Source: Promethearchaeum syntrophicum
GTDB lineage: Archaea; Asgardarchaeota; Lokiarchaeia; Sigyniarchaeales; Promethearchaeaceae
Length of the DNA: 32,000 bases
Reading direction: 5' to 3'
NCBI RefSeq assembly: GCF_008000775.2
Contig: NZ_CP042905.2
Span: 1,110,001-1,142,000 of the forward strand
Positions 3,164 to 32,000 of the stretch are shown here, one piece after another. A program made the translations under genes and the position numbers. Numbering within the stretch: position 1 is the stretch's first letter; each line of letters begins with the position of its first letter. The notes beneath the pieces were generated by a model. The model saw only the letters and a list, made by a program, of their open reading frames with translations, was not told where the DNA came from and did not search any database.

Positions 3164-4612
3164 ATGGTAGATATTGATAAGAACGACGAATTAAACGAAA
3201 TAGTCGAGAATGATAAAGAGACTTCTAAAGATGAAATTAAATCTGAGGAAGTAAGTGAAACTGAAAAAACTCCTTCAAAGAAGAAGACAACGAAGAAGAA
3301 ATCTTCAAAGAAGACAACAAAAAAGACCGCTAAGAAGACTACTAAGAAGACTTCTAAGAAGAAATCTTCAAAGAAGACAACAAAAAAGACCACTAAGAAG
3401 AAGTCTGCGAAAAAGGAGCAAGAAACCCCTGAAAGTCTTGAAAAGAAAGAAATTTTAGAAGAGACTAAAATTGAGATCAATAAGGATGAAATTGAAAAAG
3501 AACAAGAGAAAATAGATTCTGAGGTAGAGAAATTATTAGAAAATGGTTCTGAATCCGAAGAGATTTCAGCTGATGAGTTATCTAAAGAAGTTAAAGAAAA
3601 GAAAAAAGAAGAAAAGAAGGAAACTGGAAAAAAATCATCAGAAGAGTCCCCTAAAGATAATGAAAAAAAACAAGATAAAAAGAAGAAGACAAGAAAATCT
3701 AAAACATTCAAGATAGATGTTAATAAATCTCCAAAATTGAAGAGAATTGTTCAAGATATTGAAAGAATTGAAGATGTAATTGATTTAAAAAGACTTCGGG
3801 ATGAATACAATCACGGCACTCGAGATTTAATTAATAAAATCAAGAAAACCCAAACCGAAATTTCCAATATACGATCTCAAGCAATGGAATACAGAAATAA
3901 AAGAGATAGTTTGAACAAAGATGTTCAAGGAATTAAAAAGAATAAACTTACTACTTCAAATAAGTTGAATGACTCACGAACTCAATTAAAAGAAGCTAAA
4001 GTCCAATCCCGAAAAAGTGATGATGGAAATAAACGAAAAGGAATTTCCACTCAAATTAGTAAAAATCGACGGAGAATTGATCAATTAGAAAAAAGAATTG
4101 AAACTGAAGACTTGGAATTGAAGGAAGAAAACCAAATTGTTGATGAAATTGACAAGTTAGAAAGAAATCTTCAAGAACTATTAGCTCAAAATAAAAAACC
4201 GGATCAATTCAATAAACAAATAACGGAAATACGAGCTTCGAGAGAGGAACTTAGAAATTTAAATAACACATTACGCGAGAAAGCCGAAGAGAGCCAAAAT
4301 TATCATTTACTTTACCTGGATATCAGTAAAGAAATGGAAGATTTAAGAACAGAAAAAAGATCTTTGCAACGTGAATTAAATGAAAATCGCTTCATTGCGG
4401 ATATTTACCATCAAAGATTAATTGAAATGAGCCAAAAGATGAATCGGCAAAAAAGAATAACTCGTAAATCCCAATATCAAAATAAAAAGAAAGTTAAGAA
4501 AGAAATCCAGAAAATGACTTTGGAAGACGCTAAGGTTAAAATGAAGAAAGGTGTAAAACTGAATATCTTCGAAGCCCGGGCATTTTTAGAAGAACAAGCT
4601 AATAAGAAATAA
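3164..4612 (+). CDS. Lysine-rich low-complexity tail fused to a long coiled-coil protein, function unknown (possibly the archaeal COG1340-type coiled-coil family, unverified)
   Basis: 482-aa ORF. Residues about 35-85 are a basic K/T/S tail (KKTTKKTAKKTTKKTSKKKSSKKTTKK). An E/K-rich segment follows, then about 300 aa of charged heptad-like helix (LEKRIETEDLELKEENQIVDEIDKLERNLQELL). An oligo-T run follows the stop codon. The family assignment is from memory only. Confidence 0.8.
   Translation: MVDIDKNDELNEIVENDKETSKDEIKSEEVSETEKTPSKKKTTKKKSSKKTTKKTAKKTTKKTSKKKSSKKTTKKTTKKKSAKKEQETPESLEKKEILEETKIEINKDEIEKEQEKIDSEVEKLLENGSESEEISADELSKEVKEKKKEEKKETGKKSSEESPKDNEKKQDKKKKTRKSKTFKIDVNKSPKLKRIVQDIERIEDVIDLKRLRDEYNHGTRDLINKIKKTQTEISNIRSQAMEYRNKRDSLNKDVQGIKKNKLTTSNKLNDSRTQLKEAKVQSRKSDDGNKRKGISTQISKNRRRIDQLEKRIETEDLELKEENQIVDEIDKLERNLQELLAQNKKPDQFNKQITEIRASREELRNLNNTLREKAEESQNYHLLYLDISKEMEDLRTEKRSLQRELNENRFIADIYHQRLIEMSQKMNRQKRITRKSQYQNKKKVKKEIQKMTLEDAKVKMKKGVKLNIFEARAFLEEQANKK
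3293..3401 (+). repeat. 63-bp tandem duplication inside the CDS, encoding KKKSSKKTTKKT(A/T)KK
   Basis: aagaagaaatcttcaaagaagacaacaaaaaagacc occurs at 3293 and again at 3356 (a 63-nt, 21-codon offset). There is a single g/a difference in the next 10 nt before the copies diverge. Confidence 0.85.
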
Positions 4613-17610: not shown

Positions 17611-19002
17611 ATGCAAGGTCTCATCCACCCAGAAGAAACTTCCACTTTCGATAAAAAACTTAAGTTTAATGCCCCCGCAGACTACAGAGAACAATTCATG
17701 AACTGGCACACCGCTCAGAAAATCACCAAAGGAGTTGAAAATTATTACCTAGGAGATGCAATGCATATTAGATCCGTCCTAATCAACTATAAGTCTTCCG
17801 AACCTCTTAAAAAATTCGATAATACATGGTTGCGCAATAAAAAAGCAGGATTATATTACCTATTCTCCAAAAACTCCATCAGAAACAAGGAAAGTGTTAT
17901 ATCCGATTTTTCATATTTCGATCATCCAAATAATGGAAAATCATGGAAAACCTCGGGAAATGAACGAAATGGAAATCAACCCATCACCCAAAGAATGAAA
18001 TCGACAAACAATCATGTGAAATCCAGACTCGCTGTTGATTATGAATATGACTCCTTTCCGATCGGCCACCCTGAAAATCCATTCACCAACGCTTTCGTCA
18101 TCGACTTCTACGGAGAAATTCAAAATGATCCTATTAAAACTGCTGCAGGGACCCTAAGATCAAGAGTTTCGTATGAAGACTACATCAAATATATTAATGG
18201 AGTCAAAAATAAAATGCTTGACCTCAAAAAGGATTACGACTTTCTCAGTCACTCTCAAGTTTTACCTGACATGCCGGTAACTGAATTCGCCCGTCTTTTC
18301 AATTCTCACAGCCAAGTGAATTATTATGGAACCAGAGCAATGAAACGAATGAAAGGATGCTGGGCAGATACCTTCATCGAATTCAATAACCTTGGAACTC
18401 TACTTCGTTTCCAAATTGAATTCCTTGGAACCGATGAAAAAATCTATAAAAAGGTTAAACAGAACGACAACGAAGGAGGATTCAATCCGGAAAAAATGCC
18501 GACACTTTACGTCTGTGACTCTCCCACAGAAAAAGTCAAATTCTTAGAAGATCATAAAAATATCGGTTTTAACTCCCCGATACTCACGAAGGCCGAATAC
18601 TTCACCCTAATGAAAGCATGGTGGTACGCATACGCCGAAATGACCAACAACGGGCAGGATCGGAGCACTTTCAGTTTTCAATCCTTTATCACACAGCTCC
18701 ACGCTAAAGCCGATGATTGGCACATTGATGCCTTTACCGCCCAAATGGTTATGGGATCATTTGGATATGGAGTGAATGAACAAAATCTTGGAATTCGATT
18801 CAGTGGTAATCCTGCTGAAGAATTGGGAACATTTAAATGGAAGAGTGAAAATAAAAAGAACCCAAAATACGATTTCAATTATGAAGCCCAATCTTCCGAT
18901 ATCGCCCTCGATTTTACCACTTTCCTCTACCTATCCGGAGATCCCGAAATGCTCTCCTATATTCGATTCCACCTATGGAAACCCGAATGGGGTACAACTT
19001 AG
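17611..19002 (+). CDS. Hypothetical protein, no recognisable domain
   Basis: 463-aa uninterrupted ORF of ordinary globular composition, rich in W/Y/F/N. I recognise no motif. A T11 run lies at 19040-19050 downstream. Confidence 0.7.
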   Translation: MQGLIHPEETSTFDKKLKFNAPADYREQFMNWHTAQKITKGVENYYLGDAMHIRSVLINYKSSEPLKKFDNTWLRNKKAGLYYLFSKNSIRNKESVISDFSYFDHPNNGKSWKTSGNERNGNQPITQRMKSTNNHVKSRLAVDYEYDSFPIGHPENPFTNAFVIDFYGEIQNDPIKTAAGTLRSRVSYEDYIKYINGVKNKMLDLKKDYDFLSHSQVLPDMPVTEFARLFNSHSQVNYYGTRAMKRMKGCWADTFIEFNNLGTLLRFQIEFLGTDEKIYKKVKQNDNEGGFNPEKMPTLYVCDSPTEKVKFLEDHKNIGFNSPILTKAEYFTLMKAWWYAYAEMTNNGQDRSTFSFQSFITQLHAKADDWHIDAFTAQMVMGSFGYGVNEQNLGIRFSGNPAEELGTFKWKSENKKNPKYDFNYEAQSSDIALDFTTFLYLSGDPEMLSYIRFHLWKPEWGTT

Positions 19003-19145: not shown

Positions 19146-20318
19146 ATGTCAGAATATATTAGAAATGTAATCCTAACTTCCAATCCGGCTTATAGTAAAT
19201 TACCTAAAAATGTACCTAATCTAAAAAAAATTTCAATTTGGTTCTATAATACTTCTGAAAAAATGAATAATAATAAAAATAGAACTCGATATAACATTCA
19301 ATCATTTAAAGATCTGCCTGAAAAATTACCCAACCTTGAATCTATAGAATTTCACAAATCAAATATCCCAAAATTCGATGATTTACCCAAAAAACTGCCA
19401 AATCTTAAAAATATCGAATTCAATAATTCAAATATCACTAATTTCGAAAATCTAACCGCAGAAATGCCCAAACTTAAATGGTTAAGTTTCTCTGATTGTC
19501 GCATCCACAATTTCCTTGGATTCCCCTCTAATATTGGATTATCCGCTCATCACACCCAAATCACCTCATTTGAAGGACTCAACCTTCCCGTCCCCCATGA
19601 TGTCTATATGGACGAAAATTCCAACACACTAATAAAAGAAAATCTCATTAATCTCACTAACTGCACTATCCGCTCATTGGGTGGTGTATCTCGCTCTACA
19701 CTACAAGCTCTTCTCATTGCCATCCTAAGCAAAGATTATCCTCCTTCAAATCCCAAATATCCCAAAAAAAATAAACTCGACTTACACCCAACTGGCTTTA
19801 AACTCATTCAAAAATCCATCAATCACGAAATTGAACGCAGGTACTCCCCAAAATACCACAAATCCTGGCCCAGAATTGAAGGTCAATCTCAACCGTTTCC
19901 CGAAGACCTCCCCCTTGAGCTAAGATCTCGGACATGCATCAGAATACCGGATTTCTTTGTCAATGATTGGAAACTTTTTCATTCAAGCAGTATGTATAAT
20001 CGCTACGAACAAATGGAACTCCACGCACAAAAGAATGATTGGATCTATGGCTTTAATCTAATGGACAGACTCTTCATCCCCGAAAAACTCGACCGCTTAT
20101 ACGAATACTTCAAAAAAACCACCCAACAACTCGCTCAAGATTATATTACCGCCCCTGAAAGCATTCCTCCCGAACAAATTGAACGCCTTGTGCATGAAAT
20201 AAATCCCAAAATCCGAAAAATACTCGAAAATAATTTACCGCCTTCAGACTCGATAATAAAAAGAATATCCACTAAATTTTCTTTCAGAACGGAAAATGGG
20301 CTCACTCTCCTAAAATAA
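19146..20318 (+). CDS. Leucine-rich repeat (LRR) protein with an unknown C-terminal domain
   Basis: 390 aa. The N-terminal half has about 6-7 LRR units of about 23 aa: LPKNVPNLKKISIWFYN, LPEKLPNLESIEFHKSNIPKFDD, LPKKLPNLKNIEFNNSNITNFEN, LTAEMPKLKWLSFSDCRIHNF, and more. The C-terminal 200 aa or so carry no recognised motif. Confidence 0.8.
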   Translation: MSEYIRNVILTSNPAYSKLPKNVPNLKKISIWFYNTSEKMNNNKNRTRYNIQSFKDLPEKLPNLESIEFHKSNIPKFDDLPKKLPNLKNIEFNNSNITNFENLTAEMPKLKWLSFSDCRIHNFLGFPSNIGLSAHHTQITSFEGLNLPVPHDVYMDENSNTLIKENLINLTNCTIRSLGGVSRSTLQALLIAILSKDYPPSNPKYPKKNKLDLHPTGFKLIQKSINHEIERRYSPKYHKSWPRIEGQSQPFPEDLPLELRSRTCIRIPDFFVNDWKLFHSSSMYNRYEQMELHAQKNDWIYGFNLMDRLFIPEKLDRLYEYFKKTTQQLAQDYITAPESIPPEQIERLVHEINPKIRKILENNLPPSDSIIKRISTKFSFRTENGLTLLK

Positions 20319-21070: not shown

Positions 21071-22348
21071 TTGAAAAAATTTGAAAACTACAAAAATAAA
21101 AAAAATACTACAAAAAAGGTTTTTATTATGCTCGAAGAAAATAATGAAGAAGAAGAGGAAGAACCCGTCGAAGATTTTACTGACTTAGACGCGGTTGTGG
21201 ATGAAGTACAAGACCTAGAAATCGGAGTCGATGATGATTCGCTCGATTACGACGATTTCTCAGCCGAAGACATCGACGGAGAAAAGGAGGCAGTACTTAT
21301 GAGTAAGCAATGGTATAAACGAATCGAAGTCGATATGTGGATGACAAAAGCTCACATGGCAACCATGGGAATAAGGCAGCAGGACCAATACCGTGCCCAG
21401 AGCCGCCAGTACACAGCCAATATGGAAGTAAAAGGGGATATTACATTTTATGCGTATAGCCCTGAGGATTTGAACAAACCGTTTAAAGAAAGGAAAAGAC
21501 CTGTCAAAGTATTGGATTACAAAGAGATTGTCGGCTATAATAAAGGATTTTGGGATTATGATGACAAGAAATCATCTATATACAGACAAGCCGAGAAATC
21601 TGCAGAAGATTATGATCCAGCAGAATACGCAAAATTATTACGTCGTTTAGTGATAAAGACATTTTCTGAACTCAAACGTGATAAGAAGAAGAAAGGTCAT
21701 GCTGGGAGATGGCGTGGAACTATGGAAGAAAGTGTTGTACTAGGTATAAATGCAATGTTCGGAGAGAACAGGGGAAAACCTCGCCCATATTTCTTTTTAA
21801 ATTTACCTGGGTATAATTATCGGCTAGCACTTTGGCGTACAAACACCATTATTGGAGATAGGTATGTGTTTACCGTTCCACATCCAAAAACAGGGGAATT
21901 AACAACTTTCAGGATAAAAGGGCGCAGATTTACTCCAGGAAAAGATTTCAAAGTATTCAATGCGGAAACTGGGGAAAAAGTAGCAGAAATTGACGATCGA
22001 AAATTGAATATTGGTGGAAGAATGACTATAAGATTTAGAGGCGAAGAACAATTTGAGGATCTTAATCGCTCCACGGTATTTCGTAGGACTTTAATAATGT
22101 TCGCAATTATGGTTAAGTTTTTAAGACCAATCAACAGGAAATATAGAAGACTTTACCGGGGCTTAAAGAAGAAAAAGAAATATTTGAAGGCTCTAAACAG
22201 AGCTAAGAAAACTCAAGACACAGCAAAGGTAGATGCAGTTAAGTTGAAGTACCAAGATGTTCAGAGAGAATGCAAGATGCTCAAAGCTATAGAGGTAACG
22301 AACTCCGAATTGACATTGCACTTTAATCCACGTAGAATTAGAACTTAA
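21071..22348 (+). CDS. Hypothetical protein with acidic N-terminus, beta-rich core, hydrophobic helix and basic C-terminal tail (possible scramblase/LOR/Tubby-like fold)
   Basis: 425-aa ORF from TTG 21071. ATG 21129 (MLEENNEEEEEE) is the more likely start. The acidic D/E run is followed by repeated beta-hairpin-like segments (FKVFNAETGEKVAEIDDRKLNIGGRMTIRF). Next come a hydrophobic helix (TVFRRTLIMFAIMVKFL) and a K/R-rich tail. A T10 run follows the stop. Confidence 0.7.
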   Translation: MKKFENYKNKKNTTKKVFIMLEENNEEEEEEPVEDFTDLDAVVDEVQDLEIGVDDDSLDYDDFSAEDIDGEKEAVLMSKQWYKRIEVDMWMTKAHMATMGIRQQDQYRAQSRQYTANMEVKGDITFYAYSPEDLNKPFKERKRPVKVLDYKEIVGYNKGFWDYDDKKSSIYRQAEKSAEDYDPAEYAKLLRRLVIKTFSELKRDKKKKGHAGRWRGTMEESVVLGINAMFGENRGKPRPYFFLNLPGYNYRLALWRTNTIIGDRYVFTVPHPKTGELTTFRIKGRRFTPGKDFKVFNAETGEKVAEIDDRKLNIGGRMTIRFRGEEQFEDLNRSTVFRRTLIMFAIMVKFLRPINRKYRRLYRGLKKKKKYLKALNRAKKTQDTAKVDAVKLKYQDVQRECKMLKAIEVTNSELTLHFNPRRIRT

Positions 22349-26502: not shown

Positions 26503-26709
26503 ATGAGAATGCTATCAGTGTTTATCCCCGAATCTTATATCGAATCTTTAGATATTCTTGTTGCTGAAGAAATTTTCCCGAATAGAAGTGAAGCAATTCG
26601 ATCAGCAATAAGAGATTTAATTCGAAATGAAATACTCTTAAAAGATGCCGTCACTAAAAGAAAAAACAAAAAGCAATTTGAGAAACAATCGAATCAAGAA
26701 CAAAATTAA
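26503..26709 (+). CDS. Ribbon-helix-helix (CopG/Arc/MetJ-type) DNA-binding protein
   Basis: 68 aa. An N-terminal beta-strand (LSVFIPESYIESLD) is followed by the typical RHH helices (FPNRSEAIRSAIRDLIRNE) and a basic tail. Confidence 0.8.
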   Translation: MRMLSVFIPESYIESLDILVAEEIFPNRSEAIRSAIRDLIRNEILLKDAVTKRKNKKQFEKQSNQEQN

Positions 26710-26718
26710 AAAAAAATC

Positions 26719-29700
26719 TTAATCTCCCAATAGTTTCTTCCGTGCTTCTCTTCTTCTCTTCTTTCTTTCTTCAATAATTAGATTTTTCCGCTCATTTTCT
26801 GATAAGAATGTTTTCTTTTCGGATTCTACACTTCTAGATTCCTGTCTTTGTTGATTTAATTGATGTCGTGTGTATTTTAATTTCCAACGAAGCATTTCTT
26901 GTTCAACTTTTCGTGCTTCCTTTTCGTTTCCTAACTGAATATAGATCTCTTTTGCCTTATTTGCAAGTTCTAAACCTTCTTCAAAATTATTATTTTTTAT
27001 ATTTCCTGAAGCTTCTTTCATCACTTTAAGTGCTTTACTTTCTGTAGGAGCGTACTTCTTCATTTCAATTTCTTTTCTATATTCTTCTTTTTCTTGTTCA
27101 AGAACTTCCTTAAAATCATCAAGTAATTTCAACGACTTTGGCCATTTCAAATTCTTTGCCATTTCGCTAACTGTATTCATTTCTGTTTGGGCTACTAGAA
27201 AATCCTTACGTTTCTGAGCAAGTAAGATTAACGAAAGAGAATTTGCGAAATGATATTCTAAATCCAGTTTGGGATTATTAAGAATTTCATTTATATCCAT
27301 TAAAGGATTAGTTATGAGGTTATAAACTTGTAAAAATCGCTTTTTTAGTGCCTTTGCTTCTCTAACCCACTCAATTTCAATGAAATTATTTAGTGCATAA
27401 TGGAAGTAATATAAACTTAGATAAAATTTTCTGCCTTTGACACATTTTTCTGCCTGATCTATATATTCATACGCTGCATCTTCAAGAGTCACTCGATAAT
27501 TAAATACAACTTGTTGCTGTTCTGTTAATTCCTTAACTTTTTCACCTTTGGATTTTCTTTCAGCTTCTTGTTTTTCTAAGAAGTCTTTAAAGGCTTTCTG
27601 GGCTTTTTCGTCTTTTTTCTGTTGTTCTTCTAATTGTTTTTCTAGTTTAATAAAATGCTTCTTTTTTGCTTTGACATCTTGAACAATAGATAAAACTTGC
27701 TTATATTTTAGATCCCAATCTATTTTCTTAAATAATTCAATGGATTTATCATAATATTCTAATGCTTTATCAAATTGATTATTATTGGTCAAATCACCAG
27801 CAATTTCCAATATAGATATAATTTCATTTTGGATGTGTGTTACCTTTTCCTTTTCTAATTGGGTTTTCAATTTCTTTTGTTCTGCCAATAATCTATTACG
27901 TTCATCTTTCTGTTTAGATTCACTAATTAGTCGTTCTAACCGCTTTTCTTCCTCTTCTCGTTCTTTAAGTGATTTTTGAGCAATTTCTATATCAAAATTA
28001 TGATCATCCCATAATTTTTGAACCTTTAAAATGGATTCGTTTGTTAATCTGATACCCTCGGAATAATTGATTTCATTGTATTTTTCTACAACATTTTTAT
28101 AAATATTTATTGCAGGTTCAAATTGTTGTTCAGTAACTAACGTTTTGGCTTGATCTAAAAGGTTTAAACAATCATTATAGACATTTTGATGTATCAAACC
28201 TATCTCTTGTTCTCTCTGGAATTGTTCTAATCTTTTTTGTTCTTCAATTTCCCTTTTCTTTCTGTCTTCTTCAATCTTTCTTTGAAATTCTAATTCCCAC
28301 TGTGATCTTTTCTCTTCAGTTTTACTTTGTTCGATTTCTAATCTTTTACGTTCTTCTTCAAACTTCTTCTCCCATGATAATTTTGCCTTCTGATCCATTT
28401 CTTCGATTTCTTTTTGTTTTTTAATCTTAAGTTCTTCTTCTTCTATTTTTTCTAATTCTTTTTGATCCTTTTGTTTTCTAAAAATAGAAATTTGAAGTAA
28501 TACTTTATCTAATTCTGCTAACCATTTAATTTCATCAAGGATATCCATGGCTTCTTGGAATTTTTCAATTGCTTCATCAAATTTAAAATTAGCAGCCAAT
28601 TTATTTCCTTCATCCATAAGATTGAATGCTTTATTCGCCTTATTTTGATCATTTTGATATTTATTCTGAATAGCTGCTTTTTCTTCTTCTTTTCGCCGAT
28701 TTTCTGCTTCTTTCTGTTTTTGAGCATTAAGAATTTGTTGTTCCAACTCTAATTTTGATAATTGGTCTTTCCTAATCTTTTCCTCTTCAAATTTTCGATT
28801 TTTTTCATCAAAAATTAGTTTATCTTTATATAGCAAATATCCATCATTCAATCTTGCAGATTGCTCTAATAATCCTATCTCCTTTAATTTTTCACTACCT
28901 GTCTTATAAACTTCAATAGCAATCGAATAAGGACATTTAGATAATAACATTTTTCCTAAACCAACTTGATCTTCATATTTTTTAACTTGTTTCTCTATTT
29001 TTTCTATTGCACTCAAAGCTTCGGTTAAAATTTCTCTTTGGGAACTTAATTTCTCTTGTTCTTTCTTTTTTTGTTCGCCCTTTTCTTTTAGTTTAATTTC
29101 TTTTAATTTTGCGGCCACTTGTGCTTGCATTTCAAGTTTTTCCCTGTCTATCTCTATTTTAGTCAATCTTTGTTTTTCAAGATCGCGAAGTCTCTTGTCC
29201 TCAATTATTTTCTTTTCGTATATTTTTCTGCCTTCATCTAACCTATCCGCTTGTTCAATTAAACCTATTTCTCTTAATTTATTTGTTCCAATATTATATA
29301 ATTCAACTGCTTTTGGATAGGGGCATTCAAGAGATAAAATTTTTCCTAAACTGACTTCTTTTGAATATTCATTAACAACATCTTCGATTTTACTAATATC
29401 ACCTAGGACATCCTTTAATCTAGATTCTTTTTGGGAAATTACCTCAAGTTCTTTTTGGCGTTTTTCTCTTAATTCTTGCTCTTTGAGTTCTTTTAACCTT
29501 TGAGCTTCGTATGTTTTCTTTTCAAATTCTTCCTTTTCCAACCTAGCTCTCTCTTTTTTCTGGTTTTCAAGATCTCGAAGGTCCTTATCCTCAATAATTT
29601 TCTGTTCGTAGGTTTTTCTACCTTCATCTAACCTATCAGCTTGCTCAATTAAACCTATTTCTCTTAATTTGTTTGTTCCAATATTATATAATTCAACAGC

Positions 29701-32000
29701 TTTTGGATAGGGGCATTCTAGTGATAAAATGTTTCCTAAGCTAACTCCCTTTGCATATTCACTTACTACATCTTCAATTTTACTAATATCACCTAGAACA
29801 TCCTTTAATCTAGATTCTTTTTGGGAAATTACCTCAAGTTCTTTTTGGCGTTTTTCTCTTAATTCTTGCTCTTTGAGTTCTTTAATCCTTTGCGCTTCTT
29901 CCGCTTTCCTTTCAATTTCTTCTTCATCTAACCGAGCTTTTTCTATTCTCTGAAATTCACGTTCGCGATGTTTCAGATCTTCAATAATTTTTCGTTCATA
30001 AGTTTTTCTACCTTCATCTAACCTGTCCGCCTGTTCAATTAGACCCGCTTCTCTTAATTTGATTGTTCCAGTTTTATAAAGCTCTACAGCTTTTGGATAG
30101 GGGCATTCCAGAGATAATATTTTTCCTAAGCCGACTTCTTTTACATAAGCATTTACCACATCTTCAATTTTACTTAAATCACCTAAAACATTCTTTAATT
30201 TTGATTCTTTCTTGGAAAGTACTTCAAGTTCTTTTTGGCGTTTTTCTCTTAATTCTTGCTCTTTGAGTTCTTTAATCCTTTGCGCTTCTTCCGCTTTCCT
30301 TTCAATTTCTTCTTCATCTAACCGAGCTTTTTCTATTCTCTGAAATTCACGTTCGCGATGTTTCAGATCTTCAATAATTTTTCGTTCATAAGTTTTTCTA
30401 CCTTCATCTAACCTGTCCGCTTGTTCAATTAAGCCAGCTTCTCTTAATTTAATTGTTCCAATTTTATAAAGCTCTACAGCTTTTGGATAGGGGCATTCCA
30501 GAGATAATATTTTTCCTAAGCCGACTTCTTTTATATAAGCATTTACCACATCTTCAATTTTACTTAAATCACCTAAAACATTCTTTAATTTGGATTCTTT
30601 CTTGGAAAGTACTTCAAGTTCTTTTTGACGTTTTTCTCTTAATTCTTTCTCTTTTAGTTCTATTAATCTTTGAGCTTCTTTAGCTCTTATCTCGATTTCT
30701 TCTTCTCCTAATCTATATTTTTCTATTCTCTGAATTTCACGTTCGCGATGTTTCTCATCTTCAATAATTTTTCGTTCATAAGTTTTTCTACCTTCATCTA
30801 ACCTGTCCGCTTGTTCAATTAGACCCGCTTCTCTTAATTTGATTGTTCCAGTTTTATAAAGCTCTACAGCTTTTGGATAGGGGCATTCCAGAGATAATAT
30901 TTTTCCTAAGCCGACTTCTTTTACATAAACATTTACCACATCTTCAATTTTACTTAAATCACCTAAAACATTCTTTAATTTTGATTCTTTCTTGGAAAGT
31001 ACTTTAAGTTCTTTTTGGCGTTTTTCTCTTAATTCTTGATCTTTGAGTTCTATTAATCTTTGAGCTTCTTTAGCTTTTATCTCGATTTCTTCTTCTCCTA
31101 ACCTATATTTTTCTATTCTCTGAATTTCACGTTCGCGAAGTCTCTTATCTTCAATTATTTTCTGTTCATAAGTTTTTCTTCCTTCATCTAACCTGTCTGC
31201 TTGTTCAATTAAACCCGCTTCTCTTAATTTGATTGTGCCAATTTTATAAAGCTCTACAGCTTTTGGATAGGGGCATTCCAGAGATAATATTTTTCCTAAG
31301 CCGACTTCTTTTACATAAACATTTACCACATCTTCAATTTTACTTAAATCACCTAAGACATTCTTTAATTTTGATTCTTTCTTGGAAAGCGTTTCAAGTT
31401 CTTTTTGACGTTTTTCTCTTAATTCTTGCTCTTTGAGTTCTATTAATCTTTGAGCTTCTTTGGCTTTTATCTCGATTTCTTCTTCTCCTAACCTATATTT
31501 TTCTATTCTCTGAATTTCACGTTCGCGAAGTCCCTTATCTTCTTCGATTTTTCGTTCGTATGTTTTTCTACCATCATCTAACCTATCTGCTTGTTCGATT
31601 AGACCTGCTTCTCTTAATTTCTTTGTTCCTATATTATAAAGTTCTACAGCTTTTGGATATGGACATTCTAAGGACAAAATTTTACCTAAACCAACTCCTT
31701 TTGCATAATCATTAACAACATCTTCGATTTTACTAATATCACCTAAAACATCCTTTAATTTCGATTCTTTTTGAGAAATTGCTTCAAGTTCTTTTTGACG
31801 CTTATCTCTCAATTCTTTCTCTTTTAATTCTTGAATTCTTTGTGCTTCTTCCGCTTTCCTTTCAATTTCATCTTCATCTAACCGAGCTTTTTCTATTCTC
31901 TTTTTTTCGCGTTCACGAATCTTCTTATCTTCAAGAATTTTACTTTCGTAAGTTTTTCTTCCTTCATCCAAACGATTGGCTTGCTCAATTAAACCCGCTT
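26719..32000 (-). CDS. Giant modular repeat protein (partial; N-terminus lies beyond the window): E/R/K-rich helices alternating with TPR-like helical hairpins
   Basis: The frame is open from the stop at 26719 to the window edge. The ORF-track Met at 31971 is really the Leu of the repeat motif AGLIEQANRLDEGRK, so at least 1760 aa are visible. There are eight 130-aa tandem modules, then about 700 aa of diverged modules of the same architecture. Confidence 0.9.
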   Translation of the reverse strand, partial: AGLIEQANRLDEGRKTYESKILEDKKIREREKKRIEKARLDEDEIERKAEEAQRIQELKEKELRDKRQKELEAISQKESKLKDVLGDISKIEDVVNDYAKGVGLGKILSLECPYPKAVELYNIGTKKLREAGLIEQADRLDDGRKTYERKIEEDKGLREREIQRIEKYRLGEEEIEIKAKEAQRLIELKEQELREKRQKELETLSKKESKLKNVLGDLSKIEDVVNVYVKEVGLGKILSLECPYPKAVELYKIGTIKLREAGLIEQADRLDEGRKTYEQKIIEDKRLREREIQRIEKYRLGEEEIEIKAKEAQRLIELKDQELREKRQKELKVLSKKESKLKNVLGDLSKIEDVVNVYVKEVGLGKILSLECPYPKAVELYKTGTIKLREAGLIEQADRLDEGRKTYERKIIEDEKHREREIQRIEKYRLGEEEIEIRAKEAQRLIELKEKELREKRQKELEVLSKKESKLKNVLGDLSKIEDVVNAYIKEVGLGKILSLECPYPKAVELYKIGTIKLREAGLIEQADRLDEGRKTYERKIIEDLKHREREFQRIEKARLDEEEIERKAEEAQRIKELKEQELREKRQKELEVLSKKESKLKNVLGDLSKIEDVVNAYVKEVGLGKILSLECPYPKAVELYKTGTIKLREAGLIEQADRLDEGRKTYERKIIEDLKHREREFQRIEKARLDEEEIERKAEEAQRIKELKEQELREKRQKELEVISQKESRLKDVLGDISKIEDVVSEYAKGVSLGNILSLECPYPKAVELYNIGTNKLREIGLIEQADRLDEGRKTYEQKIIEDKDLRDLENQKKERARLEKEEFEKKTYEAQRLKELKEQELREKRQKELEVISQKESRLKDVLGDISKIEDVVNEYSKEVSLGKILSLECPYPKAVELYNIGTNKLREIGLIEQADRLDEGRKIYEKKIIEDKRLRDLEKQRLTKIEIDREKLEMQAQVAAKLKEIKLKEKGEQKKKEQEKLSSQREILTEALSAIEKIEKQVKKYEDQVGLGKMLLSKCPYSIAIEVYKTGSEKLKEIGLLEQSARLNDGYLLYKDKLIFDEKNRKFEEEKIRKDQLSKLELEQQILNAQKQKEAENRRKEEEKAAIQNKYQNDQNKANKAFNLMDEGNKLAANFKFDEAIEKFQEAMDILDEIKWLAELDKVLLQISIFRKQKDQKELEKIEEEELKIKKQKEIEEMDQKAKLSWEKKFEEERKRLEIEQSKTEEKRSQWELEFQRKIEEDRKKREIEEQKRLEQFQREQEIGLIHQNVYNDCLNLLDQAKTLVTEQQFEPAINIYKNVVEKYNEINYSEGIRLTNESILKVQKLWDDHNFDIEIAQKSLKEREEEEKRLERLISESKQKDERNRLLAEQKKLKTQLEKEKVTHIQNEIISILEIAGDLTNNNQFDKALEYYDKSIELFKKIDWDLKYKQVLSIVQDVKAKKKHFIKLEKQLEEQQKKDEKAQKAFKDFLEKQEAERKSKGEKVKELTEQQQVVFNYRVTLEDAAYEYIDQAEKCVKGRKFYLSLYYFHYALNNFIEIEWVREAKALKKRFLQVYNLITNPLMDINEILNNPKLDLEYHFANSLSLILLAQKRKDFLVAQTEMNTVSEMAKNLKWPKSLKLLDDFKEVLEQEKEEYRKEIEMKKYAPTESKALKVMKEASGNIKNNNFEEGLELANKAKEIYIQLGNEKEARKVEQEMLRWKLKYTRHQLNQQRQESRSVESEKKTFLSENERKNLIIEERKKRRREARKKLLGD
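28849..32000 (-). repeat. Exact 390-bp-period in-frame tandem repeat array (8 full units plus the start of a ninth at the window edge)
   Basis: The landmark ttttggata(g/t)gg(g/a)cattc recurs at 29311, 29701, 30091, 30481, 30871, 31261 and 31651, with a diverged copy at 28921. Unit boundaries are 28849, 29239, 29629, 30019, 30409, 30799, 31189, 31579 and 31969. 29834-30030 is identical to 30224-30420. Confidence 0.95.

Follow-up and report, generated by a model that had tools for sequence, protein, structure and literature searches.

A giant modular protein family of Asgard archaea with three-helix bundles predicted to lie on continuous charged helices

Giant rods built from small helical bundles are known from several protein families. 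In spectrin, dystrophin and the nesprins (PF00435), a helix is shared between successive three-helix bundles, which follow one another with a period of ~106–130 residues. The FG-repeats of staphylococcal Embp and Ebh are 126 aa long and consist of two three-helix bundles joined via a shared helix; their structure has been solved, and the rods that they form are rigid and measure hundreds of nanometres (PMC7587433). Here we describe a gene of the archaeon Promethearchaeum syntrophicum whose giant modular product appears to follow a related plan. The gene lies on the minus strand at one end of a 32,000-nucleotide stretch of DNA, referred to below as the window (NCBI RefSeq assembly GCF_008000775.2, contig NZ_CP042905.2, positions 1,110,001 to 1,142,000), and continues beyond its edge. 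Among known prokaryotes, the nearest relatives of eukaryotes are the Asgard archaea, very few of which have been cultured, P. syntrophicum being one.

By architecture, the nearest analogues of the protein are spectrin-type rods and the Ebh/Embp FG-repeats. As in spectrin, the last helix of each bundle is predicted to run into the first helix of the next. However, the Asgard bundles are shorter and set apart by an exposed charged helix of ~48 residues, whereas spectrin bundles abut, and the protein lacks actin-binding or other terminal domains and has no match to Pfam Spectrin in the window at E <= 1. With Ebh/Embp it shares a repeat length close to ~126 residues and the threading of three-helix bundles on a shared long helix. 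Those proteins are secreted or cell-surface adhesins with tightly packed bundles and no charged spacer, in contrast to the Asgard protein, which has neither signal peptide nor anchor and, in the window, no FIVAR or GA match in Pfam.

By sequence signature, the nearest analogues are MIT and tetratricopeptide repeat (TPR) domains. MIT domains (Vps4, MITD1, ULK3, calpain-7, spartin, NRBF2; PF04212) are likewise three-helix bundles of ~70–85 residues with a TPR-like A..Y..A signature in the first two helices. Known MIT proteins carry one or two copies, whereas the Asgard proteins carry 14–25 per chain on long helical spacers and have no effector domain; moreover, the window modules contain a 13–14-residue insertion and score below threshold. 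Compared with TPR proteins (Pfam clan CL0020), whose consensus helix A/B motif is matched by a profile of the Asgard unit, each unit amounts to one TPR-like motif plus a capping helix and forms no contiguous solenoid. The spacer itself recalls the ER/K single alpha-helices of myosin VI/X and caldesmon, being rich in E, K and R and predicted to form a lone helix that keeps folded domains a set distance apart, but it is less charged (52–67%) and has conserved hydrophobic positions. The Asgard family differs from all of these in three respects: an exposed charged helix separates its bundles, its unit number is different, and it is a cytoplasmic archaeal protein without other domains. We rate helical-bundle rods as already known and the giant Asgard family with its exposed spacer as new among them.

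The minus-strand open reading frame (ORF) has its stop codon at 26719–26721 and is open through 31998, the last full codon of the window. Over all of its 1,759 residues it is 100% identical to the C-terminal part of DSAG12_01611 from Ca. Prometheoarchaeum syntrophicum MK-D1. The complete gene, which was sought beyond the window edge, encodes 2,547 aa in this record and 2,807 aa in an older record of the same organism (QEE15784.1), a difference of exactly two 130-aa modules. A short-read Logan assembly of a public run is interrupted within the module array. The number of ECPY modules may thus be 12 or 14, or may vary within the culture; the reading frame is not in doubt. A metagenome-assembled genome (MAG) of another Promethearchaeum species contains an intact ortholog of 1,898 aa, 72% identical, which begins with a helical unit from its very start; this MAG and one distant relative were the matches of the genome-collection scan. 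Neither a signal peptide nor a membrane segment was detected in the giant protein, its true N-terminus included (maximum Kyte-Doolittle 19-residue mean <1.0), and we rejected both kinds of targeting. Since it has no signal peptide and no hydrophobic segment, we read the protein as cytoplasmic. Its net charge is approximately zero and its last 30 residues are polybasic. The gene and its parts in the window are as follows.

26719..32000, minus strand: 3' two-thirds of DSAG12_01611 (1,759 codons and the stop codon); the 5' 788 codons lie outside the window
28651..31998, minus strand: array of 130-residue 'ECPY' modules, with eight complete bundles and, where the window stops, the end part of a ninth
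28441..28641, minus strand: canonical (116-type) TPR/MIT-like bundle 1, FDEAIEKF, located with the unit profile
27982..28182, minus strand: canonical bundle 2, FEPAINIY, located with the unit profile
27634..27834, minus strand: canonical bundle 3, FDKALEYY, with the best TPR_1 and MIT matches inside the window, both below threshold
26845..27486, minus strand: putative C-terminal head without long spacers, made up of bundle 4, a TPR-like stretch and bundle 5
27286-27486, minus strand: bundle 4, part of the head
27046-27285, minus strand: intervening TPR-like stretch, probably a bundle
26845-27045, minus strand: bundle 5, part of the head
26722..26811, minus strand: polybasic C-terminal tail TFLSENERKNLIIEERKKRRREARKKLLGD, conserved in the congeneric ortholog

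A preliminary description of the window had proposed a giant ORF of 130-residue modules, open at the window edge. This is borne out by the ORF, by a tandem repeat with a 390-bp period (Tandem Repeats Finder; 7.2 copies, 88% matches and 0% indels at 29175–32000) and by the autocorrelation of the protein, which is maximal at lag 130 with 45% identity. The motifs on which the proposal was built (LGDLSKIEDVV...ECPYPKAVELY, FDEAIEKF, FEPAINIY and FDKALEYY) were all located. In the full-length protein, 'CP[YF]' anchors stand 130 residues apart in nine of ten intervals, and the remaining interval of 257 residues crosses one module without the anchor. At the DNA level, the seven upstream modules of the window are 80–94% identical and the eighth ~60% (overall range 58–94%). 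Summed over the eight modules, the ratio of nonsynonymous to synonymous differences (pN/pS) is 0.34. It is 0.30 in the bundle and 0.44 in the spacer, which indicates that both parts of the module are under purifying selection.

The full extent of the repeat was determined with a hidden Markov model (HMM) built from the FDxAIxxY units and then iterated on homologs. This unit HMM recognizes 20 units in the 2,547-aa protein at a spacing of 116 or 130 residues: three N-terminal canonical units (116-residue spacing), twelve 'ECPY' units (~130 residues), one of which has lost the ECPY motif, and five C-terminal canonical units. The C-terminal FDxAIxxY units had been taken for relatives of the 130-residue modules, and alignment of the two profiles with hhalign agrees (probability 97.6%, E 4.6e-12). 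An ECPY unit corresponds to a canonical unit with 13–14 additional residues between helices 1 and 2, and this insertion accounts for the difference between 130 and 116 residues. The 130-residue modules of the window thus appear to be a recently amplified, lineage-specific version of the 116-residue unit plus an insertion.

To obtain a structural model, two successive modules of the window were submitted to AlphaFold2 as a monomer, together with an alignment comprising 26 pairs of paralogous or orthologous modules. The two-module model has a mean predicted local distance difference test score (pLDDT) of 95.5, with helices at residues 2–27, 38–54, 58–157, 168–184 and 188–215. A single bundle was modelled as three helices with pLDDT 94.4 and a predicted template modelling score (pTM) of 0.80. 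Each unit is therefore predicted to be a three-helix bundle whose third helix extends unbroken along the charged spacer and becomes helix 1 of the bundle that follows. The bundle comprises ~83 residues (helices 2–27, 38–54 and 58 to ~85–87) and is followed by an exposed helical spacer of 47–48 residues; helix 3, spacer and next helix 1 together make a connecting helix of ~100 residues in the model. As in spectrin-type connectivity, one helix (58–157) spans both bundles. Representative parts are the following.

30352..30600, minus strand: representative three-helix bundle (window residues 467–549), the sequence modelled, AlphaFold2 pLDDT 94–95; 13–14 residues, 'VGLGKILSLECP', are inserted between its helices 1 and 2
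31381..31521, minus strand: example charged spacer of 47–48 residues (window residues 160–206), predicted to be helical without a break from the helix 3 before it to the helix 1 after it

These models redraw the module. The preliminary description had divided it into a charged helix of 70 aa and a two-helix hairpin of 55 aa. In the models the proportions differ: since the bundle spans ~83 residues, part of what had been assigned to the charged helix is helix 1 and helix 3 of the bundle, and the supposed hairpin is modelled with three helices. The spacers are 52–67% charged, 17–27% hydrophobic and approximately neutral overall, with 6–16 opposite-charge pairs at i/i+4 per 48 residues. None of the 17 MK-D1 spacers contains proline or two or more glycines. 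Charged helical spacers are thus retained from the earlier proposal, whereas a textbook ER/K single alpha-helix agrees poorly with this composition and the conserved hydrophobic positions. The broader claim is supported: the protein is giant, modular and all-alpha, and its spacers are charged and helical.

Long spacers are lacking in the ~215 residues before the tail. Relatives show unit spacings of 75 and 68–82 residues at this position, and the region probably forms a compact C-terminal head.

The protein belongs to a sizeable family. A first search returned 47 homologs, a profile built from canonical (subfamily ii) proteins detected 180 clusters or more at E <= 1e-10, and an exhaustive HMM scan with the two-module profile matched only 178 of 1.84 billion representative proteins at E <= 1e-3. 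Wherever a member is named, it is Asgard (labels Promethearchaeota, Lokiarchaeota, Hermod-, Hod- or Thorarchaeota), and the annotation reads only hypothetical or 'TPR repeat protein'. The members are 1,600–2,900 residues long and contain 14–25 units at a spacing of 114–130 residues and no other domains. Two subfamilies were distinguished. Subfamily i, which includes the window gene, has the ECPY insertion and lineage-specific spacings of 120–130 residues. Subfamily ii is canonical and falls into proteins of 14, 18 or 20 units with lengths of 1,640–1,663, 2,100–2,127 and 2,320–2,349 aa; its spacing mode is 116, and a position-specific pattern (116, 116, 116, 117, 114...) is kept in proteins that are only 40–55% identical. 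Such invariant spacing suggests that length, helical phase or the two together are constrained, and its strictness across the family fits the idea of a ruler or scaffold. We found no description of the family in the searchable literature. The survey of related genomes that had been proposed thus yielded both homologs and module counts, and the statement that the module could not be placed in any family holds for characterized families but not for this uncharacterized Asgard one. In sum, this is a well-defined, conserved, Asgard-specific family of giant proteins whose function can be tested.

What might such a protein do? The reading that we favour, and to which we give an even chance, is that of an entirely alpha-helical cytoplasmic rod with ~20 small three-helix bundles on continuous helices, acting as a spacer, tether or scaffold, with the number of modules defining its length. 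The bundles would be regularly spaced docking sites of the helix-in-groove type, as in TPR and MIT domains, and the C-terminal head with its polybasic tail would be the anchoring end. In the model, 73 residues separate the start of helix 3 from that of the helix 1 which follows, so that at 1.5 Å per residue each module would contribute ~11–12 nm, and twenty units would span ~0.2 µm if the chain were straight. A P. syntrophicum cell is reportedly ~0.55 µm in diameter; the rod would then be comparable in length to the cell radius and take up a good part of the cell. The number of modules, and hence the length, would change when the 390-bp DNA repeats recombine unequally.

Several observations weigh against this reading. 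The pTM of the two-module model is 0.57, so the mutual orientation of the bundles and the stiffness of the chain are not defined by the monomer model. Among relatives, 26% of subfamily i spacers and 9% of subfamily ii spacers contain proline, and the rod may therefore be hinged. The conserved residues of the bundles are mostly core positions and thus identify no ligand site. Finally, the gene neighbourhoods of the subfamily to which the window gene belongs gave no functional clue.

How Asgard cells build long protrusions and organize their membranes is a question for which the family offers a concrete candidate structural or organizing element. That status rests on conservation, selection, occurrence in Asgard archaea only so far, predicted rods of 1,600–2,900 residues and discrete length classes of 14, 18 and 20 units. 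Should ESCRT-III or other helical motifs prove to dock on the bundles, the family would bear on the origin of eukaryotic membrane-remodelling networks, and it would be, to our knowledge, the largest MIT-type array. If the protein is merely a spacer, it would still be a clear natural example of length control through module number.

An unlikely but credible alternative is that the spacers pair between chains, parallel or antiparallel, to give a coiled-coil dimer or filament, comparable to an intermediate filament or to a golgin-like tether with the bundles as 'knobs', and possibly recruited by a GTPase. The 17–27% hydrophobic residues of the spacers would allow for such pairing. In MK-D1 these residues gather in two heptad registers, both enriched, and several spacer positions are >90% hydrophobic across 138 canonical units. 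However, canonical spacers have only ~6 strongly conserved hydrophobic positions per 48 residues, compared with ~14 for a heptad seam, and show no 3.5-residue periodicity, and the charge content of the spacers is 50–67%. On these grounds we rejected a classical heptad seam in canonical spacers; the same numbers argue equally against a pure ER/K single alpha-helix. As for recruitment, both subfamilies have a gene for an Arf/Rag-like GTPase upstream of the giant gene, at a distance of two to five genes, and in the window the fourth gene downstream encodes a 203-aa small-GTPase-like protein with GAVSVGKTT and NKID motifs. Small GTPases are abundant in Asgard genomes, and given this abundance, proximity alone is weak evidence.

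We consider it quite unlikely that the protein is a multivalent MIT array, in which the bundles bind the MIM helices of ESCRT-III and decorate or template the polymer at fixed intervals or tie it to the ubiquitin system. Of 44 single canonical units from the family, 25 match MIT, more than match any other Pfam family (best E 4.4e-8; TPR_2 matches 10), and whole-protein MIT scores of relatives reach 72–84 bits through the summing of many weak units. Against Protein Data Bank (PDB) sequences, the canonical-unit profile aligned with the MIT domain of VPS4A over 50 of 70 profile positions (E 1.4e-4), and also with designed consensus TPR proteins over 23 residues. The window protein behaves differently. 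As a whole it has no MIT (PF04212) match at E <= 1, and single MK-D1 units score at best 25.5 bits (an N-terminal unit outside the window) and 17.2 bits inside the window, all below the gathering score of 30. The ECPY-unit profile found no significant natural match among PDB sequences, with MITD1 at E 0.12, and a single canonical N-terminal unit matched designed TPR proteins only.

The single-bundle model has the form of the MIT fold, an asymmetric three-helix bundle of ~70–80 residues. Foldseek searches of the PDB with the two-module and single-bundle models gave nothing significant; MIT structures recur among the weak matches, with TM-scores of 0.4–0.5 and E above 0.8. The proposed check by AlphaFold and Foldseek hence produced a confident bundle but no significant structural match to TPR or MIT. 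We conclude from the profiles that the units fall in the TPR-like helical class, nearest to MIT domains, and that MIT membership of the MK-D1 protein is not established. The earlier label of a TPR/MIT-like unit accordingly stands at the level of profiles (MIT, TPR designs, VPS4A) but not as an above-threshold match in the MK-D1 protein. It had also been envisaged that the repeat might turn out to belong to a well-characterized family; the matches found are at most marginal, and none is above threshold.

A possible tie to the ubiquitin system comes from subfamily ii, whose giant genes have an Arf/Rag-like GTPase/RACo block on one side and, just downstream on the other, a ThiF (E1-like) gene of 512–530 aa, with a UQ_con (E2) gene a few genes past ThiF. 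This order was seen in five loci that include all three length classes. However, the E1/E2 synteny sits inside a long conserved block that also carries unrelated housekeeping genes, and the neighbourhood of the window subfamily differs, containing no E1, E2 or ESCRT genes. The arrangement suggests a lead rather than evidence, and may reflect no more than a conserved block. In addition, the published ESCRT surveys that could be searched do not mention the family. A more ambitious version would make the protein an Asgard-specific cytoskeletal or membrane-skeletal ruler, with MIT-like beads ~11–12 nm apart on a stiff helix docking helical motifs such as ESCRT-III MIM tails, or ubiquitin-linked partners. 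To this we assign a still slimmer chance; if true, the MIT-MIM interaction network of eukaryotes would have a multivalent precursor in prokaryotes, or spectrin an analogue among the archaea most closely related to eukaryotes.

The database label 'tetratricopeptide repeat protein' would make the protein a scaffold of the usual TPR superhelix kind, which is very improbable. Some sources call the relatives TPR proteins, and the resemblance to consensus TPR designs described above is accompanied by weak matches to TPR_2 (21.1 bits for the whole window protein) and TPR_1 (19.9 bits; best single MK-D1 unit 21.6 bits). All these scores of the MK-D1 protein lie below the gathering thresholds (~27–28 bits), and the match to TPR is a single 23-residue stretch per unit. 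A TPR solenoid consists of three or more adjacent motifs, whereas the units of the rod are 116–130 residues apart with long helices between them, which makes contiguous stacking impossible; only in the C-terminal head may three TPR-like units be adjacent.

The idea of an assembly artefact or a decaying pseudogene of satellite DNA, to which the two-module difference between same-strain records (2,547 vs 2,807 aa) and the interrupted short-read assembly might lend colour, was rejected as practically negligible, given a frame open over 5.3 kb, 0% indels among the repeat copies, a pN/pS of 0.34 and intact orthologs and paralogs, free of the frameshifts that had been named as a warning sign, in many independent assemblies.

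Pfam DUF4904 (PF16247) was also considered as a candidate family, at 29041–29820 on the minus strand. Each ECPY module scores ~14 bits, and the whole protein passes the cut-off (32 bits) by summation only; no literature was found on DUF4904, and we took the match as uninformative.

The immediate neighbours of the giant gene in the window are the following.

26503..26709, plus strand: CopG-type ribbon-helix-helix gene of 68 aa (PF01402, 29.8 bits vs a cut-off of 20.5), convergent with the giant gene and ending 9 bp from its stop codon
23810-26280, minus strand: four genes downstream of the giant gene, of 107, 178, 277 and 203 aa, on its strand; the set is also found in one relative

The ribbon-helix-helix gene occupies the same position beside the giant gene in five subfamily i relatives, and beyond it this subfamily has a gene of ~107 aa. 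The 107-, 178- and 277-aa products have no match in Pfam or NCBIfam, and the 107-aa product none in the PDB either. In more distant members of subfamily i, genes for an Arf-like GTPase, a proteasome alpha subunit and a 131-aa protein lie upstream; the conserved 131-aa protein has no Pfam, NCBIfam or PDB match.

The window as a whole has ~31% G+C and contains an archaeal Rpb3/RpoD gene, and an Rfam scan of it returned zero matches. No family was matched by two further sizeable ORFs on the plus strand, at 17611–19002 (463 aa) and 21071–22348 (425 aa); the gene between the two, at 19146–20318 (+), encodes a 390-aa protein with weak leucine-rich-repeat matches. A 482-aa ORF at 3164–4612 (+), without a Pfam match, has an acidic N-terminus followed by a lysine-rich KKTTKK/KKSSKK run and then a long charged helical region; the lysine-rich run recalls a histone H1 tail, and the local AT skew is 0.35.

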